A DNA stretch of 64,000 nt from a virus (lineage: Duplodnaviria; Caudoviricetes). A program made the position numbers and the translations under genes. The notes below the pieces were generated by a model, which worked only from the letters and a program-made list of their open reading frames with translations, searched no databases and was not told where the DNA came from. The stretch lies in the IMG/VR virus record IMGVR_UViG_3300024252_000005. One strand, written 5' to 3'. Of this stretch, positions 3,185 through 64,000 are shown piece by piece (within the stretch, counting starts at the first letter, position 1; each line of letters opens with the position of its first letter).

Positions 3185-4711
3185 ATGTCAACGTTTGCAT
3201 TAACAACAAAGGCAACACCTTTTGGAGTTTATGATAATGATTCTCATTTTCAAGAAGACGCAGATGGTGTCGTACTATATGTTAAGAGAAGACTTGGCGA
3301 CGACGTTCTATCTGTTGAGCTAACAAATAAACAAATATGGGCAAACTTTGAAGAGTCTGCTCTTGAATTCTCAAAACAAATTAATGCTCACCAAGCTGAG
3401 TCTTATATGTCAAATATCCTCGGCTTGAACGCAGGACCAAATGTCACATTTAAGAAAAATGACTTTGGACATTACTACTGGCTAGATACAGCACATAAAG
3501 AAGACGATAGGATTCATGATGCTGCAAGCAACTTAGACGATAGAAAAAACGTTCAAGTACTTTTAGTACAAAACCCTTCAGATCCTAGATTTAGGTTGCA
3601 AAATAAAAAAGGTAAGTATAAGACAATAGGACCTGATGATAGTCTTACTATAGCTATTACAAGAAATATTGAAGCTCATACAGATACAGCAACTACAGTA
3701 TCACCTATAGAAGATAAAAAAGTTGGCCCTAATGGCCAAGAACAGAAGTTTCCAAGAGAAACTTTGGAGTACTTGTTAAGAAGAGCAGAACCTTATGCAT
3801 CTGAAGCATTTGTTGGCGGCGTTAGCAACTCTTTAAGAGGTTATATACCTTTAACACAAGACAAGCAAGATTACAACATATACGAAGATATGATAATTCC
3901 CGATGGCACAAATGAGCTAACGTTATCTTCTTTTAACGGAGACCCAGCACAAAAATCTTTATTTAATCCAGTCTATAAGGATAAGTTGTTACCTACAGCT
4001 ACAGCAACAAAAATAAAAGTTAATGAAGTTTTTCACTTTTCACCCCAAGCAGCTTATCGTTTCTTTGACACTACATCAGCTATCAACTATTTGAACAATC
4101 AGTTTTCTTTTGAGTCGTTTACACCAGAAACAGTTTTCTATGTGTTACCTGTCTTTGAAGACTTATTAAGGGCAGGCCAGCTAGATATATCTAATAGAGT
4201 AAGAAGAAGTAATTACAGCTATAGGATTCAAGGACAAGAGATTAGAATATACCCACGTCCAACTCAGTCAAACCCTATGAACTTATTCGTCAAGTTTTCT
4301 TTTCCTTCAGATCCTTTTAAGCCAAACTTACCTTACGATGATGATTCAATTGAAGGCGTTTCAAACTTATCAAATGTGCCTTTTGATAATGTTTCTTATA
4401 GCGGTATAAATCAAATGTCAAGACAATGGATAAGGCAATATACTTTAGCGTTATGCAAAGAGACACTTGGTCTTATTAGATCAAAGTTTAGTTCAGTGCC
4501 TATTCCAGGAAGTGATGTACAACTAAATGGATCTGATTTAATAAGTCAAGGTAGAGAAGACAGACAGAGATTAGCTGAATCGTTAGGCGAAACTTTAGAC
4601 AAGTTAACATATCAAAAGTTATTAGAGACAGATGCAGCTCAAAGTGAATCAATGATGAACATACTTAAGAGAGTACCTATTCCTAACGGAAGAGCAATAA
4701 TTATAGGATAG
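3185..4711 (+). CDS. Neck / head-tail adaptor protein (T4 gp13-like)
   Basis: C-terminal WIRQYTLALCKETLGLIRSKF..PIPG..V.LNG signature; position upstream of the sheath genes. Confidence 0.65.
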   Translation: MSTFALTTKATPFGVYDNDSHFQEDADGVVLYVKRRLGDDVLSVELTNKQIWANFEESALEFSKQINAHQAESYMSNILGLNAGPNVTFKKNDFGHYYWLDTAHKEDDRIHDAASNLDDRKNVQVLLVQNPSDPRFRLQNKKGKYKTIGPDDSLTIAITRNIEAHTDTATTVSPIEDKKVGPNGQEQKFPRETLEYLLRRAEPYASEAFVGGVSNSLRGYIPLTQDKQDYNIYEDMIIPDGTNELTLSSFNGDPAQKSLFNPVYKDKLLPTATATKIKVNEVFHFSPQAAYRFFDTTSAINYLNNQFSFESFTPETVFYVLPVFEDLLRAGQLDISNRVRRSNYSYRIQGQEIRIYPRPTQSNPMNLFVKFSFPSDPFKPNLPYDDDSIEGVSNLSNVPFDNVSYSGINQMSRQWIRQYTLALCKETLGLIRSKFSSVPIPGSDVQLNGSDLISQGREDRQRLAESLGETLDKLTYQKLLETDAAQSESMMNILKRVPIPNGRAIIIG

Positions 4712-59505: not shown

Positions 59506-59642
59506 TTTACTATTTCTTCCTGCTCATCAGAAACCTCAGACCACCCAGGAATATTTAGCGATTTAAAATCTCTTTCATTGATAGTACATTTATTCCACTC
59601 TAATAATAACACTTTAAACTCTTTCCTATTCAGATTGTTCAT
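59490..59642 (-). CDS. 50-aa ORF absent from the ORF track
   Basis: MNNLNRKEFKVLLLEWNKCTINE...; AAGGA SD; resembles the N-terminus of 41594..42271. Confidence 0.45.
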   Translation of the reverse strand: MNNLNRKEFKVLLLEWNKCTINERDFKSLNIPGWSEVSDEQEEIVKCLTI

Positions 59643-59666
59643 TTATGATCCTTAGTAATTACAATA

Positions 59667-59696
59667 CGTGTAAATTAAATATTAATTAAATATAAT
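59667..59696 (+). promoter_or_regulatory. Sigma70-like promoter CGTGTAAATT...TATAAT
   Basis: TGTAAA 59669-59674, 16-nt spacer, TATAAT 59691-59696; upstream of dnaE. Confidence 0.7.
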
Positions 59697-59731
59697 AAAA
59701 CACAAATTAAACATAAACTATAAGGAATAAA

Positions 59732-61507
59732 ATGAATAATACATTTAATACGGAAAGGAGGTATCTAGAGAAGGTTGAACTTGAACTGCTTACACCTAAC
59801 AGATTTGTTAGCTTGCATTCGCATTCAACCTTCTCGTAGATATCTACGTTTGATGGATTAGGTTACCCATCAGATCATATAGACTTCGTACTTTCTGAAT
59901 CACAAGGTATGGATGCTTGGGCACTAACAGACCACGGCAATGGCAACGGTCTTGCTCACGCGCATTCACACGCTGTCAAAATGCAAAAGGCTGGGAAAAA
60001 GTTTAGACAAATCTACGGCGTCGAATTCTACTTCGTTCCTTCACTAGATCAATGGACTAATGACTACACAGCACACCGACAAGCAATTAAAGATGCAAAA
60101 ACTGCTGCTGCTGCAGAAAAGAAGTCTAATGAAGAAATCATCATTGATGCTGATGATGAAAGCGGTGGTCTTGTTATAGAGGATGAAGATGAATCCAAAA
60201 AGATTGATATTCTTAAAGATGAATGGAAACGTCGCTATCACTTAGTAGTCACAGCAAGAAATAGAAAAGGACTTAATAACCTATTTGTTTTAGTAAAGAA
60301 GTCTTACAAAGATGGATTTTATCGATACCCACGTATTGACTTTAAAATGCTTAAAGAACACGGCGAAGGCTTACACGTAAATTCTGCATGTTTAGGTGGG
60401 ATTTTTAGCAATAGAATACTCCGCGGCGTTGCACATGATAAGTCACGTGATGAAATCCAAAAAGATCTTTTAAATCTTACAGACAGATTTACAGACGCAG
60501 TTGGTATTGAAAACTTCAAACTAGAACTACAGTTCAACAAGCTAAACAAACAACACGTTGTTAATGACTACCTTATAGAACATCATAAACTAACTGGTAT
60601 TCCTCTCATCTCAACAGCAGATTCTCATTACCCGAGCAACGATAAATGGCAAGCAAGAGAGTTATATAAGAAACTTGGCTGGCTTGGTAAGAAAGATAAC
60701 TTAACTCTTCCAGCATTTGAAGATCTTAAATGTGAGTTGTATCCTAAAAATGCACAACAAATGTGGGATGAGTTCCTTGAAGGGTACAAAGAACACGATT
60801 TCTATAAAGGTAATGAGCAGTTAGTTAAAGAGTCAATAGAAAGAACGCATGATATTGTTTGGAATGATTTTGAAGACACTTGGATTGATGTAAGTGCAAA
60901 GCTTCCAACAATAACAATACCTGATAAGACACCGTTCAGACACCTATCAGACTTGGTTAAAAACGCTCTCGTTTCTGAAGGTTTACATACTAACAAAGAG
61001 TACGTAGATAGAGCTAAGTATGAGTTGTCTGATATTAAGTATCTTGGCCATGAAGCGTACTTTATCACAATGTATGAGATCTTTAAAAAAGCTGAAACAA
61101 AGACATTATTTGGAGCTGGAAGAGGCTCAGGTGCGGGGAGTTTAGTTAACTACTTGTTAGGCATTACACAACTCGATCCAATTCCTTATAACTTACTTTG
61201 GAGTAGATTTTTAGGCAGACATAGATGTCTAGACGAAGATACTTACGTTATATCTGAATGTGGTAAAAAGAAGATTAAAGATGTTAGTGAAGGCGAAAAA
61301 GTACTAACTCATACAGGTCAGTATAGAAAAATTATTGATAAGGCTGTAACACAACATGATATGGCTGTTGAAATAAAATTTAATGGTCGTAAAATTATTT
61401 GCTCGCCTAATCATCGTTGGATTGTTAATCGTAATGGTAACGAAGTAGAAACAATGGCATGCCATTTACAAAAAGGTGACAAACTTATAAAAAACATCTA
61501 TGCATGA
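59732..61507 (+). CDS. dnaE: DNA polymerase III alpha, N-terminal half (PHP + palm start) fused to N-intein; in-frame TAG at 59837
   Basis: FVSLHSHSTFS*ISTFDG, LTDHG, GVEFY, ADSHY, GRGSGAGSLV.YLLGIT.LDP. Confidence 0.9.
61226..61504 (+). mobile_element. Split intein, N-fragment (93 aa)
   Basis: Block A CLDEDT, block B CSPNHRW, ends L.KGDKL followed by a stop. Confidence 0.9.
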
Positions 61508-62468
61508 TATATTTACCCAAGAAAACCTGCCCGGAAGCGATTATATGGAAGAGAAAGATTACCTCAAAAAAATTTCTTGCAAAAATTGTAATCTAGATTT
61601 TGTAATAAATTTCAAAATGTCAGACCAAGGTTCTATTGCAAAGTGTAACAGATTGTATTGCAGTAACAAGTGTAAAAAAGTGTATCTTAAAAAGAATGGT
61701 TCGAAAAGTTCTATAAAACTTAGATGTAAACATTGCAGCAATGTTTATTTTAAACCAAAGTCACTTTCAATTAACTCAAAATTTTGTAGTAGGATTTGTC
61801 AAAATAGAAGTTACGCAAATGAAAATCAAAAAGATAGAAAACAAATCAATTGTAAAGTTTGTGACAAAGTTCTTTCTGTTATAGAAGGCTCTAAAAGAAA
61901 ATATTGCAGCCATAAATGCAGTCATTTAGGTCAAAAAGGTAATACAAAAATATTTGAATGTGCTGTTTGTAAACAAGAGAAAGTTATATTGGAAAATGAC
62001 AATAGAACTTATTGCGGTAGAAATTGTCAATATAAAGCGCAGTCGTTAGGTATGATAAAAATACCAACAAAAGGTAGAAGCGGTTATAGAATAGACTTGC
62101 CTGCTACGATGTATTTTAAAAGTGCACTTGAAGCAGATTACGCTAGATATTTAAAATTTCTTAATATTAGCTTTAAGTATGAATGCAAGTGTTTTGAATT
62201 AGATGACAGTGGCAAGAAAAGAAGATACACACCAGACTTTTATATAGACAAAGAAGATATGTTTGTTGAAATGAAAGCTGGCAGGAAAGATAAAAAGTTC
62301 TCTAAGAATTTAGAGTGCGTGCAATTAGTAAAAAACTGTGGTTATAATATAAAAGTGATATACATGTCTGAATTTTATGACATGCTTAAAAAAGAAAACT
62401 TATATGAGGAGATTCCAAACATTGAAAGACGAAATTACAAAAAAACAAAACGCCTTATACGAGATTGA
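61500..62468 (+). CDS. Zinc-ribbon-repeat PD-(D/E)xK endonuclease (putative homing endonuclease B) between the dnaE halves
   Basis: CxxC/FCSxxC repeats; YTPDFY...FVEMK; paralogue of 53082..53846. Confidence 0.8.
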   Translation: MHDIFTQENLPGSDYMEEKDYLKKISCKNCNLDFVINFKMSDQGSIAKCNRLYCSNKCKKVYLKKNGSKSSIKLRCKHCSNVYFKPKSLSINSKFCSRICQNRSYANENQKDRKQINCKVCDKVLSVIEGSKRKYCSHKCSHLGQKGNTKIFECAVCKQEKVILENDNRTYCGRNCQYKAQSLGMIKIPTKGRSGYRIDLPATMYFKSALEADYARYLKFLNISFKYECKCFELDDSGKKRRYTPDFYIDKEDMFVEMKAGRKDKKFSKNLECVQLVKNCGYNIKVIYMSEFYDMLKKENLYEEIPNIERRNYKKTKRLIRD

Positions 62469-64000
62469 GGAAATCAACTTTGTACATTACGATCAAGATA
62501 TGATTGATATTGAAGTAGAAGGCGATCACACTTTCTACGTTTCAGAAGACCCCATGAATGAATTTATCTTGACACATAATACAAGCTGGCCGGATATCGA
62601 CACAGATGCTGGAGACCGAGATGAGCTGATCAACGCAGCAAAAGAGTTATATGGCGACGACGCTGTTATTCCAGTATCAAACTTTAACACTCTTAAACTT
62701 AAATCACTTGTTAAAGACATTGCAAAGTTTTATGATATCCCGTTTGACGAAGTCAATAAGGTAACTGGTCCGCTTCAAGATCAAGTTATGCAAAAAGCAA
62801 TGGATAAAAATCAAGAAAAGTCTGTATTTGTCCTTAAACATGAAGACTGCATGAAATACTCTCCTGAGTATAATGAATTTATGACAACTTATCCGGAAGT
62901 TGCTGAGCATGTTGAAACGTTGTTTATGCAAAACAGGGCTATTGGACGACATGCGGGAGGCGTGATAATAGCTGATGCAGATGCACTTGCAGAGTCAATG
63001 CCGATTGTTGGTGTTCGTGGAGAACTACAAACACCGTGGACTGAAGGTATGAACTTTAGGAATCTTGAAGACAACGGTTTTCTAAAGTTTGACTTCTTAG
63101 GTTTAACGCTGCTTAAAGATGTAGAGAATTGCATTTATAGAATCCTAAGAAAAAGCGGAATGAAAAATCCTGCATTCACAGATGCAAGAGCATTCTTTGA
63201 TAAGCATTTAAACTGTAGGTTTGTCAAACAGGATGACCCTAAAGTTTGGGAACATGTGTATAAGGATGGTCACTTCGTTGGTATATTCCAGTTCACAAAT
63301 CAGGGAGCTAGACAGTTTTCAATGGATGCATCGCCTGTAAGTATACAGGAGTTAGCAACAATTACTGCGATATATCGCCCTGGACCGCTTAAAGCAAATG
63401 TGCACAAGAAATATGTTGAGGCAAAAAACAATGCTAATGATATTGTGTACGATCATCCTATCATAGAAGAAGTACTTGGATATACTTACGGCTACTTTTG
63501 CTTTCAAGAGCAATTCATGTTGATGGCACAAAAGCTTGCTGGGTTTTCACCGGGTGAGAGTGATAAGTTACGAAAGACGCTTGTAAAGAAATCACTAGAC
63601 ACTTTGCATTCTAAAGGATCAGAAAAGGCAGTTGCTAGAGAGAAGTTTATTAAAGGTGCCAAAGAGCTCAATGACATCCCTGAGAGTATTTCTTCGAAGC
63701 TCTGGCAAGACATAGAAGGTTTCGCAGTTTATGGCTTCAATCTTTCCCATGCAGTTGCGTATGCTATTGGGTCGTATTACGCGGCATGGCTACATACACA
63801 TCACGAGACTGAGTGGATGGCAGCGATATTGCAATCTGAGAATGGTAATCCTAAAGGAATGTCAAAAGCCATTTCAGAGATTAAGTCGTTTGGATATGAA
63901 ATTGCTGCAATAGATATAAACCACTCTGAAGCTGAATGGGAATATTCTGATGTGTTGAAAGCTTTTGTGCCGCCGTTGACATCGCTTAAAGGAGTAGGTG
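62422..64000 (+). CDS. dnaE: DNA polymerase III alpha, C-terminal half preceded by C-intein (runs off the window; start uncertain)
   Basis: Frame is open from 62359 (ATG 62377, ATG 62404, or TTG 62422 with GAGGAG SD); SWPDIDTD, HAGGV, LKFDFLGL, GIFQF, YRPGP, FNLSHAVAY. Confidence 0.9.
   Translation, partial: MKDEITKKQNALYEIEEINFVHYDQDMIDIEVEGDHTFYVSEDPMNEFILTHNTSWPDIDTDAGDRDELINAAKELYGDDAVIPVSNFNTLKLKSLVKDIAKFYDIPFDEVNKVTGPLQDQVMQKAMDKNQEKSVFVLKHEDCMKYSPEYNEFMTTYPEVAEHVETLFMQNRAIGRHAGGVIIADADALAESMPIVGVRGELQTPWTEGMNFRNLEDNGFLKFDFLGLTLLKDVENCIYRILRKSGMKNPAFTDARAFFDKHLNCRFVKQDDPKVWEHVYKDGHFVGIFQFTNQGARQFSMDASPVSIQELATITAIYRPGPLKANVHKKYVEAKNNANDIVYDHPIIEEVLGYTYGYFCFQEQFMLMAQKLAGFSPGESDKLRKTLVKKSLDTLHSKGSEKAVAREKFIKGAKELNDIPESISSKLWQDIEGFAVYGFNLSHAVAYAIGSYYAAWLHTHHETEWMAAILQSENGNPKGMSKAISEIKSFGYEIAAIDINHSEAEWEYSDVLKAFVPPLTSLKGVG
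62461..62580 (+). mobile_element. Split intein, C-fragment
   Basis: EIEEI...IDIEVEGDHTFY...ILTHN followed by +1 Thr (ACA). Confidence 0.9.

Follow-up and report, generated by a model that had tools for sequence, protein, structure and literature searches.

A putative programmed ribosomal hop over an in-frame stop codon in phage dnaE, carried on a mobile homing-endonuclease cassette

The dnaE gene in a 64,000 nt stretch of DNA from an uncultured marine phage (Caudoviricetes, IMG/VR record IMGVR_UViG_3300024252_000005; the whole stretch is referred to here as the window) contains a 9 nt insert at 59837-59845 that begins with the in-frame stop codon TAG (59837-59839), inside PHP motif I. We consider it likely that these 9 nt are a coding gap bypassed by ribosomes and that the gene thus harbors a programmed translational bypass on a mobile homing-endonuclease cassette. 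This reading is drawn from sequence comparisons among phage dnaE loci. Unless another locus is named, coordinates are those of the window, and its annotated features are on the plus strand except for the palindrome, to which no strand was assigned.

The open reading frame starts with ATG 59732, which is preceded at a distance of 5 nt by the Shine-Dalgarno sequence AAGGA (59722-59726). Its first part, 35 codons long (59732-59836), consists of an N-terminal extension (codons 1 to ~20) and the element's copy of PHP motif I (RFVSLHSHSTFS). It reads ...FVSLHSHSTFS, with TCG (59834-59836, Ser35) as the last codon, followed by TAG, ATA, TCT (59843-59845), ACG and TTT GAT GGA. A preliminary description of the locus had placed the ATG, the AAGGA, the in-frame TAG and the perfect palindrome CGTAGATATCTACG (59835-59848) at these positions, and the coordinates were confirmed. 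The promoter that it had assumed upstream of the gene was not recovered, as a sigma-70 scan gave no call above chance, and the exact upstream motif AATACGTGTAAAT occurs only once in the window. The second part of the ORF (59846-61507) resumes with ACG (Thr) and TFDGLGYP... and encodes what remains of the PHP domain, followed by the first section of the polymerase core and the N-terminal half of a split intein.

Alignment of related dnaE genes showed that the closest relatives (95-98% identical protein) are devoid of the 9 nt, which are likewise absent from the L001-L006 loci and other insert-less relatives. These relatives read HSHSTFSTFDG, so that exactly 9 nt are surplus in the window and removal of the gap restores the motif. 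The spacing of the metal-binding motif, HxHSxxSxxDG, was invariant in 90 insert-less relatives. The reading frame upstream of the TAG is the frame of Met 59909, and the Pfam PHP match on the read-through product begins at residue 28, i.e., before the TAG, and spans the gap.

An assembly artefact had been named as one possible cause of the insert. Since the contigs of two seawater DNA runs cover the 9 nt and agree without any difference, and since dozens of independent metagenome contigs have the same or related inserts, this can be ruled out. Nor is the insert a pseudogene lesion. Both DNA runs contained insert-bearing and insert-less alleles together, and the insert-less allele of the seawater samples has a loose end, ...ACTTTTAGCACT, at 59849. 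The presence of both alleles in the same samples would be compatible with a removal of the gap from RNA or DNA before translation, be it by editing, by micro-splicing or in a repaired genome subpopulation. However, the insert-less alleles have a different upstream cassette and are thus no precise 9-nt deletion, and metatranscriptome contigs from two runs, covering 59718-60408 and 59727-60038, retained the insert with no deletion at the gap (contaminating DNA is possible in contigs from RNA libraries). We also know of no mechanism for excising 5-11 nt of mixed sequence, and regard removal of the gap ahead of translation as extremely unlikely.

The hop reading, already proposed in the preliminary description, is supported by the conservation of the site across a family of inserts. 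We found ~24 distinct combinations of take-off codon, gap and landing codon, all at the same dnaE codon, in many aquatic phage contigs (IMG/VR, JGI/ENA metagenomes). Every type has a Ser TCN codon that is directly followed by TAG, TAA or TGA, and the hop lengths are 5, 7, 8, 9, 10 and 11 nt. The landing codon shares at least two of three bases with the take-off codon in 23/24 types (chance expectation 0.156 per type), and its middle base is C in 24/24. A complete match of both codons occurs in only two types, the window combining TCG with TCT; the first position of the landing codon is A or G in half of the types, and one type, TCT to ACC, has a single base in common. As many loci were fetched with insert-specific patterns, the frequencies in this collection are biased; an unbiased pattern suggested that ~10% of the alleles carry an insert. 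A megablast search gave no match for the locus among cultured phages, tblastn returned only relatives of ≤30% identity, and the insert pattern had 0 matches in the bacterial and archaeal genomes scanned. Since these searches found nothing close, the device appears to be known solely from uncultured phage contigs.

According to the decoding that we propose, ribosomes would start at ATG 59732 and read 35 codons until peptidyl-tRNA-Ser occupies the take-off codon TCG (59834-59836) with TAG in the A site. The tRNA would then unpair, the mRNA would slide forward by 9 nt, and the tRNA would re-pair on the landing codon TCT (59843-59845), after which translation would resume at ACG. The 9 nt would add no residue, and the product, ...HSHSTFS-TFDG..., would have the motif as it is in the insert-less relatives. 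A single +1 or -1 frameshift was considered and rejected: types with a 9-nt gap cannot be restored in this way, and tRNA-Ser would pair poorly with codons in the shifted frame.

Readthrough of the stop codon, the other recoding event that had been considered for this gene, would have the TAG read by a near-cognate or suppressor tRNA and would place three extra residues (x-I-S) in PHP motif I. With a single TAG and an insert of 9 nt that keeps the frame, the window allele alone might use readthrough as a minor route, but relatives of the same architecture have double stops (TAA TAA, TAG TGA) and hops of 5, 7, 8, 10 and 11 nt, which rule it out as the common mechanism. The additional residues would moreover lie inside the metal-binding motif, whose spacing does not vary among the 90 insert-less relatives. 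Reassignment of TAG or a suppressor tRNA was rejected as well, with ORFs of at least 150 aa covering 86% of the window under translation table 11, TAG ending 4/45 of the long ORFs and no tRNA gene in the window; the latter two observations also speak against readthrough, which we judge very improbable.

Both sides of the gap are under purifying selection at the protein level. In 21 distinct clade-A cassettes, pN/pS was 0.23 over the 35 codons upstream of the gap, and codons 8-17 showed zero synonymous change; for the 21 codons from the landing codon to Met 59909 (Met60), pN/pS was 0.07 at a pS of 0.65. These values bear on the possibility that the locus gives rise to two products, a 35-codon leader peptide or leftover and a truncated DnaE that starts at Met 59909, as the preliminary description had envisaged, or at a non-canonical codon past the stop. 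Gene callers would annotate the locus in this way, ATG 59909 is in frame, and translational coupling is hinted at by several relatives, whose first ATG overlaps with the stop codon that ends the upstream endonuclease ORF. Nevertheless, a restart at Met60 is contradicted by the selection on both flanks, above all by the low pN/pS between the landing codon and Met60, and none of the types has an ATG, GTG or TTG after the stop. The product starting at Met60 would be devoid of the HxH and Asp ligands of PHP motif I, and the cassette's copy of RFVxLHxHxxFS, which is under protein-level selection, would be purposeless if it were never joined to the rest of the protein. We therefore consider the synthesis of two separate products very unlikely. 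Part of the purifying selection downstream of the gap could come in through recombination with insert-less alleles.

The presence of the N-terminal extension follows that of the insert. An ATG was located 26-35 codons ahead of the take-off codon in 30/30 carriers tested, whereas in the non-carriers (n=90) the best-scoring start was 16-24 codons ahead of the corresponding position. In independent pairs on the tree, extension and insert changed in the same direction in ~10/11 cases and never in opposite directions (p ~0.002). Most folded cassettes have a Shine-Dalgarno sequence, AAGGA or AAGGU, 5-7 nt ahead of the first ATG, and a few are without one. Between clades, the extension shows no conserved peptide sequence, and the ENPV motif that recurs in it corresponds to the reverse complement of the xGFS codons, suggesting a constraint that acts on the RNA. 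The association between extension, hairpin and gap could partly be linkage inside one transferable cassette.

The RNA element that recurs in the cassettes is a long-range hairpin of 10-13 bp, in which the N-terminal extension pairs with the 12 nt ending in the take-off codon; other clades have it as well. In the window, the 5' arm of stem 1 (GAGAAGGTTGAA, 59768-59779) is the perfect reverse complement of the 3' arm (TTCAACCTTCTC, 59824-59835), which ends at the second base of the take-off codon, and the predicted minimum free energy is -43.3 kcal/mol (z -5.0). The duplex energy of the 3'-arm stretch with the upstream RNA had a median of -18.7 kcal/mol in 39 carriers vs. -5.7 kcal/mol in 77 non-carriers, with disjoint ranges (Mann-Whitney p 1.6e-18, uncorrected for relatedness). 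Among 17 distinct versions of the paired arms, which include GC/CG/TA/AT swaps, 87% of the cells paired, compared with 72 ± 2% after shuffling. As the 5' arm was picked as the best partner, these counts are biased toward pairing, and insert-less homologues and column shuffles served as controls. RNAalifold predicted no structure when given 35 cassettes in a plain MAFFT alignment, since the variable loops threw the 5' arms out of register; an end-anchored MAFFT alignment lost the register likewise, so the pairs were counted by a script in which the take-off codon served as the anchor for the arms. With a covariance model derived from two clades, the other clades were recovered at 26-58 bits, with partial separation at the low end, where some carriers scored 26-35 bits and non-carriers up to 32. 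Two related +5 types (L203 and L232) are without the long hairpin.

A second stem is possible in the window, with a 5' arm (AGGTATCTA, 59759-59767) that pairs with the stop, the rest of the gap and the landing codon (59837-59845) and overlaps the internal Shine-Dalgarno-like motif described below. Its duplex energy is -9.4 kcal/mol, compared with -3.8 kcal/mol for shuffled controls, and it was found in only about half of the insert types. The local 14-bp palindrome CGTAGATATCTACG could form a mini-hairpin as an alternative to stem 2. The preliminary description had linked it to the hop, but other types do not have it in this form; what is conserved is the long-range hairpin. Local hairpins of 3-5 bp appear possible by eye in some of the other gaps.

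A strong internal Shine-Dalgarno-like motif, AAGGAGGT (59755-59762), is situated within the N-terminal extension and ends 5 nt before the 5' arm of stem 1. The corresponding motif ends 4-9 nt 5' of the arm in 19/20 representative cassettes, from all clades. The idea that this motif and the gap together act as a ruler was discarded; the sum of the distance from the motif to the arm and the gap length ranges from 8 to 17 nt, without compensation.

During take-off, the ribosome would enclose the 3' arm of the hairpin. On leaving the exit channel, the 3' arm could zip onto the free 5' arm, pulling the mRNA forward and blocking its backsliding. The stem ending in the take-off codon would thereby stimulate the hop. 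More tentatively, we suggest that the dnaE cassettes are a minimal bypass system of natural origin and great diversity, whose hop over the stop codon is driven by an exit-side hairpin as it refolds, possibly helped by the adjacent internal Shine-Dalgarno-like motif. Ribosome shunting over the whole hairpin was rejected, as the loop encodes the conserved RFVxLHxH motif.

The insert belongs to a cassette that has moved between dnaE alleles. In the window, the cassette comprises ~190 bp. Its 5' limit is the conserved motif AATACGTGTAAAT (59663-59675), the likely site of the crossover at which an endonuclease gene and the old 5' fragment of dnaE were deleted, and its 3' limit lies within TTTGATGGATTAGG, at about 59849-59862. 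Homology of the window to the L212 locus begins at 59663, one base past the endonuclease ORF of L212, which occupies positions 3489-4388 on the minus strand of that locus, and homology to the insert-less L004 locus begins at 59620. The window is a mosaic, with 100% identity to L007/L008 upstream of the gap and 95-100% identity to the insert-less L001 downstream. On a tree of 120 dnaE sequences, the insert state requires at least 18 changes.

An ORF for a PD-(D/E)xK endonuclease is located directly upstream of dnaE in 23/35 carriers but in 3/70 non-carriers (Fisher p 1.6e-11). In the relatives, matches to this ORF came from PHROG families of endonucleases and resolvases and from T7 endonuclease I (PD-(D/E)xK, E 0.0016), and it does not belong to the HNH Mob family. 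Upstream of it lies a remnant of the old dnaE 5' end that terminates in ...HSTF-stop. In the window, where three small minus-strand ORFs were examined, there is no endonuclease upstream of dnaE, whereas relatives have one; the window thus appears to be a derivative that lost the nuclease gene and kept the cassette.

The suggestion that the insert is the footprint of an element was right about its origin. From the arrangement in the relatives, the extra bases can be recognized as the leftover right-hand joint of an element with a homing endonuclease by which the 5' end of dnaE was duplicated, and we infer the same for the 9 nt of the window. As shown in the relatives, dnaE would have been entered after the Phe codon of motif I by a free-standing gene for a homing-type PD-(D/E)xK endonuclease, the element bringing with it its own start codon, the N-terminal extension and a copy of the first ~12 codons of the motif. 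This copy would rebuild the conserved target at the right-hand joint, and the extra bases would most likely have been retained since they break the rebuilt site and shield it from the nuclease. In the window, the nuclease gene and the old 5' fragment would have been lost later by recombination between the duplicated upstream sequences. That the insert makes the rebuilt target immune to the element's nuclease is no less likely than a regulatory role for the hop.

Given a selfish element that seems to be frequently on the move, one could also suppose that dnaE is broken, that its function is supplied elsewhere and that the conserved features are purely those of the element. In carriers, however, the remaining dnaE is open and highly conserved, and carriers without an endonuclease, including the window, retain a perfect hairpin, the Shine-Dalgarno sequence and the gap. 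The covariation in the hairpin moreover indicates selection on a function at the RNA level that is tied to the take-off site, and an inactive gene is scarcely plausible.

To our knowledge, T4 gene 60 with its homologues is the single well-studied family of natural programmed bypassing in bacteria and phages, next to one further candidate. The literature that we searched contained no report of a bypass in dnaE. T4 gene 60, associated with the MobA element (Manning and Atkins, bioRxiv 10.1101/2022.08.31.505936; review PMC5009743), resembles the dnaE cassettes in that an essential replication gene contains a coding gap with a stop after the take-off codon and a landing codon that is matched, in dnaE for the most part in two of three bases, that the element adds an N-terminal extension, and that some lineages have lost the endonuclease and yet keep the bypass, as the window would have done. 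Its 5' stem-loop has the same proposed role as the exit-side hairpin of dnaE. In other respects the two differ. Gene 60 encodes a topoisomerase and has a 50-nt hop, compared with putative hops of 5-11 nt within PHP motif I; the dnaE cassettes have no take-off stem-loop conserved across types but a long-range hairpin with the take-off codon at the end of its 3' arm, their Shine-Dalgarno-like motif is 5' of the hairpin and not within the gap, and their clades have no nascent-peptide motif in common. The nuclease of the dnaE cassettes is of the PD-(D/E)xK type and T7 endonuclease I-like, whereas T4 MobA is an HNH enzyme, and a short 5' exon was duplicated in dnaE, whereas the gene 60 protein was split into two subunits. 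No sequence homology between the two systems was apparent.

The geometry of the window is exactly that of synthetic 'stop-hops' in E. coli, in which a single amino acid is specified by 9 nt (Weiss et al. 1987, cited in PMC5009743). Those were laboratory constructs of low efficiency, whereas the dnaE gap is natural, conserved and accompanied by a covarying hairpin; according to the 2016 recoding review, no natural in-frame stop-hop was known at that time. The candidate UUA bypass in terminase genes of Streptomyces phages (PMC10732093) likewise concerns a short coding gap in a phage gene, with a Shine-Dalgarno-like sequence on its 5' side, but it involves a hungry UUA codon instead of a stop, sensing of the host state has been proposed for it, and no link to an endonuclease was reported. 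The 'byp' elements of Magnusiomyces capitatus, as described in PMC5009743, are also inserts neutralised by bypass whose take-off and landing codons often match in only two of three bases, but they measure 27-55 nt, occur 81 times per genome, are mitochondrial and are largely independent of context.

If the bypass reading is correct, the dnaE cassettes would be a second, unrelated bypass family that is again tied to a selfish endonuclease, and homing endonucleases would have recruited ribosomal hopping at least twice. This would suggest a general route by which mobile nucleases shield a rebuilt target within an essential conserved motif and leave the protein unchanged. The ~24 natural variants, with gaps of 5-11 nt, three stop codons and landing codons that are cognate or match in two of three bases, would permit tests of the driving force and of the landing rules; the short variants with their covarying exit-side hairpin make the movement of the mRNA during the hop and the choice of the landing site testable. 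With regard to annotation, gene callers cut dnaE at Met60 or split it, and the N-terminus of the polymerase would thus be mis-annotated in many aquatic phage genomes.

The window also resembles the fractured genes with Vsr-like endonucleases (Dassa et al. 2009, PMC2677866), which are marine phage replication genes, including dnaE, with free-standing endonucleases of the restriction fold; the window dnaE has a split-intein fracture of this kind downstream. In the fractured genes, trans-splicing inteins repair the protein, whereas in the bypass dnaE a duplicated 5' exon and a putative ribosomal hop would do so. The C-terminal intein half, followed by the DnaE C-extein (..THN/TSWPDIDTD..), is located at 62377-63999 and runs off the window. 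Between the two intein halves lies a free-standing endonuclease ORF (61500-62468) that matches PHROG endonuclease families and is homologous to the cassette endonuclease of the relatives (BLASTP against the upstream ORF of L013, 31% identity over 120 aa, E 4e-10).

In the window, ATG 59732, with AAGGA just 5′ of it, opens a frame that reads ...FVSLHSHSTFS as far as TCG (59834-59836), meets TAG (59837-59839) and continues with ATA TCT ACG TTT GAT GGA. The stop begins a 9-nt insert (59837-59845) in PHP motif I of the DNA polymerase gene dnaE, and a perfect palindrome, CGTAGATATCTACG, spans 59835-59848, all as the preliminary description had it. The long ORF that a gene finder would begin at Met 59909 (Met60) shares this frame, and in the read-through product the Pfam PHP match begins at residue 28, ahead of the stop, identifying the 35-codon piece as the true start of the PHP domain. 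TAG as a sense codon was ruled out: the ORFs of this AT-rich, phage-like window (33% GC) are intact under table 11, no tRNA gene was found in it, and TAG ends 4 of its 45 long ORFs, indicating that it is not reassigned here.

An IMG/VR search with the downstream protein as query returned 65 related loci. The closest relatives (95–98% protein identity) read HSHSTFSTFDG and are exactly 9 nt shorter, which is the motif that removal of these bases had been expected to give; the related loci L007, L008, L009 and L013 share this insert or have one like it, and relatives further away have a TAA TAA or an 11-nt version. Scanning IMG/VR and metagenome contigs for the pattern brought the total to ~24 distinct insert types, all at the identical codon and of common design: immediately after a Ser TCN codon stands TAG, TAA or TGA, then come −1 to 5 further bases and a landing codon with a middle C, after which the next codon encodes the next conserved residue. 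The distance from take-off to landing codon is 5, 7, 8, 9, 10 or 11 nt (for +5, the last base of the stop doubles as the first of the landing codon), and in 23 of 24 types the two codons agree at two or more of their three bases, with a chance expectation of 0.156 per type. None of the ~24 types has a start codon after the stop. Readthrough, in which the stop itself would be decoded, is excluded as the shared mechanism by the double stops and by hop lengths that are not multiples of three.

The insert is genuine and recurs across loci. An assembly artefact, one of the alternatives raised earlier, is contradicted by the recurrence of ~24 types at one codon and by contigs of two seawater DNA runs that cover the insert with zero differences from the window. 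The same two runs also contain contigs that diverge from the window exactly at 59849 and whose upstream part is the insert-less allele; a single sample thus contains both alleles, which are set apart by the whole upstream cassette (start codon, N-terminal extension, motif copy and gap) rather than by a 9-nt deletion. In the metatranscriptome, contigs from two runs, spanning 59718-60408 and 59727-60038, keep the insert, which speaks against removal of the 9 nt at the RNA level, although RNA libraries can contain DNA. Both start just before ATG 59732, and TATAAT (59691-59696) lies upstream of these starts; contigs cannot show a transcript start, and their beginnings near 59718-59727 are only a hint of one.

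In the window's clade (21 distinct cassettes), pN/pS was 0.23 in the 35 upstream codons and 0.07 (pS 0.65) in the 21 codons from the landing codon to Met60; the part downstream of the gap recombines with insert-less alleles, so that some of its signal may be imported. These values indicate that both flanks of the gap are translated. The low ratio upstream of Met60 argues against the suggested restart at Met 59909, by which a PHP-truncated enzyme would be made.

The N-terminus is longer in all carriers, with the ATG 26–35 codons before the take-off codon, versus a best-scoring start 16–24 codons before the equivalent Ser codon in insert-less relatives, and the extra length seems to have its explanation in the RNA. 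On the plus strand of the window, GAGAAGGTTGAA (59768-59779, codons 13–16) and TTCAACCTTCTC (59824-59835), whose last base is position 2 of the take-off codon, are perfect reverse complements of each other; this stem 1 is extended into the gap by stem 2, in which AGGTATCTA (59759-59767) pairs with TAGATATCT (59837-59845) and G59836 is bulged (window fold −43.3 kcal/mol, z −5.0). Other clades have the same hairpin architecture in different sequences. When the last 14 nt up to and including the Ser codon were paired in silico with the 87 nt upstream, the median duplex energy was −18.7 kcal/mol for 39 carriers and −5.7 for 77 non-carriers, with zero overlap. The 17 distinct arm pairs show GC/CG/TA/AT exchanges at variable positions, and 87% of their cells are paired, compared with 72 ± 2% after shuffling. 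A covariance model from two clades finds the remaining clades; it also matches ~1.1 kb upstream in carriers (L013:1732-1805, L212:4437-4541 and similar), where a remnant copy of the insert-less dnaE 5′ end precedes an endonuclease gene. The recurring extension peptide motif E-N-P-V is the reverse complement of the x-G-F-S codons, and codons 8–17 and 31–34 show zero synonymous change in the window's clade. Furthermore, 19 of 20 representatives have a strong Shine-Dalgarno-like motif whose end lies 4–9 nt before the hairpin's 5′ arm (AAGGAGGT, 59755-59762, plus strand, in the window). Stem 2 and local palindromes like the window's occur in some types only, so the 14-bp palindrome highlighted in the preliminary description is not the conserved signal; the covarying long-range hairpin is conserved instead. 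The long stem is absent from two +5 types, the metagenome contigs L203 and L232 (TCG TAA CG ACC), which have an N-terminal extension of 29 codons, only a weak, differently placed stem and, in L232, an endonuclease ORF upstream; they may represent a mechanistic variant or a decaying copy.

The ribosome probably hops over the 9 nt, as originally proposed, a reading supported by the design of the types, the selection on both flanks and the covarying hairpin. Peptidyl-tRNA-Ser would leave TCG with TAG waiting in the A site, the mRNA would slide by 9 nt and the tRNA would re-pair on TCT. The 3′ arm of the hairpin would be inside the ribosome at take-off and, on emerging, would zip onto the free 5′ arm, pulling the mRNA forward and hindering backsliding; mRNA pairing at the exit has been discussed in the same role for gene 60 (PMC5009743). 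T4 gene 60 with the MobA element is the nearest known system and shares its logic with the dnaE cassette, but gene, gap length, signals and nuclease fold differ. The geometry in the window is that of synthetic 9-nt stop-hops, and a 2016 review knew of no natural one (PMC5009743). No dnaE bypass was found reported in the literature searched.

The window's dnaE is mosaic. On the upstream side of the gap it matches L007 and L008 with no difference, and on the downstream side it shares 95–100% identity with the insert-less locus L001 but only 81–95% with L007 and L008. Mapped onto a 120-sequence dnaE tree, the presence or absence of the insert requires at least 18 changes, 11 of them on well-supported branches. 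A ~300-residue same-strand ORF lies directly upstream in 23 of 35 carriers versus 3 of 70 non-carriers (Fisher p 1.6e-11); it matches phage endonuclease and resolvase families and T7 endonuclease I (PD-(D/E)xK fold), and is homologous to the free-standing endonuclease between the split-intein halves of the window's dnaE. Upstream of this ORF, the original dnaE start survives in several loci as a remnant ending ...HSHSTF (...HGHTG in the locus L037) with a stop at once. The element would have entered motif I just behind its Phe codon, carrying a start codon, extension and motif copy of its own, and would thereby have restored the conserved sequence at the right-hand joint apart from a few extra bases. 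In the MobA element of T4, the bypass insert reportedly shields the rebuilt site against nicking (bioRxiv 10.1101/2022.08.31.505936); by analogy, the extra bases in dnaE most likely confer immunity to the element's own nuclease. Homology of the window to its near-twin L212 begins one base after the endonuclease ORF of L212, and homology to the insert-less L004 begins ~40 nt farther upstream, limits which suggest that the window lost the nuclease gene and the remnant, presumably by recombination in the duplicated upstream sequence, and kept a ~190-bp cassette (roughly 59663-59860).

In the loci L213 and L201, the remnant (..HSHSTF and ..HAHSHFS) continues in frame without an immediate stop 5′ of the endonuclease ORF and may be fused to it. 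In several clades (L022, L037, L098, L190 and other loci) the initial ATG of the cassette abuts the stop codon of the endonuclease ORF or shares bases with it (UAAUG, UGAAUG), and the Shine-Dalgarno GAAGGU comes from the conserved C-terminus ..EGK of that ORF; this arrangement suggests that nuclease and polymerase are translationally coupled there.

Farther downstream, within the 59909-63999 region, dnaE is fractured again on the plus strand. The N-extein with the N-intein half runs to 61507, the C-intein half with the C-extein (..THN/TSWPDIDTD) starts at 62377, and between them lies a 322-aa Cys-rich endonuclease ORF (61500-62468) that overlaps each. The arrangement is that of the fractured genes of Dassa et al. 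2009 (PMC2677866), and this one polymerase gene bears the traces of two endonuclease invasions. On the IMG/VR contig L166, an endonuclease ORF whose greatest similarity is to the window's intein-embedded one ends ~90 nt upstream of an insert-less dnaE, possibly a related element with the same target region but no bypass gap.
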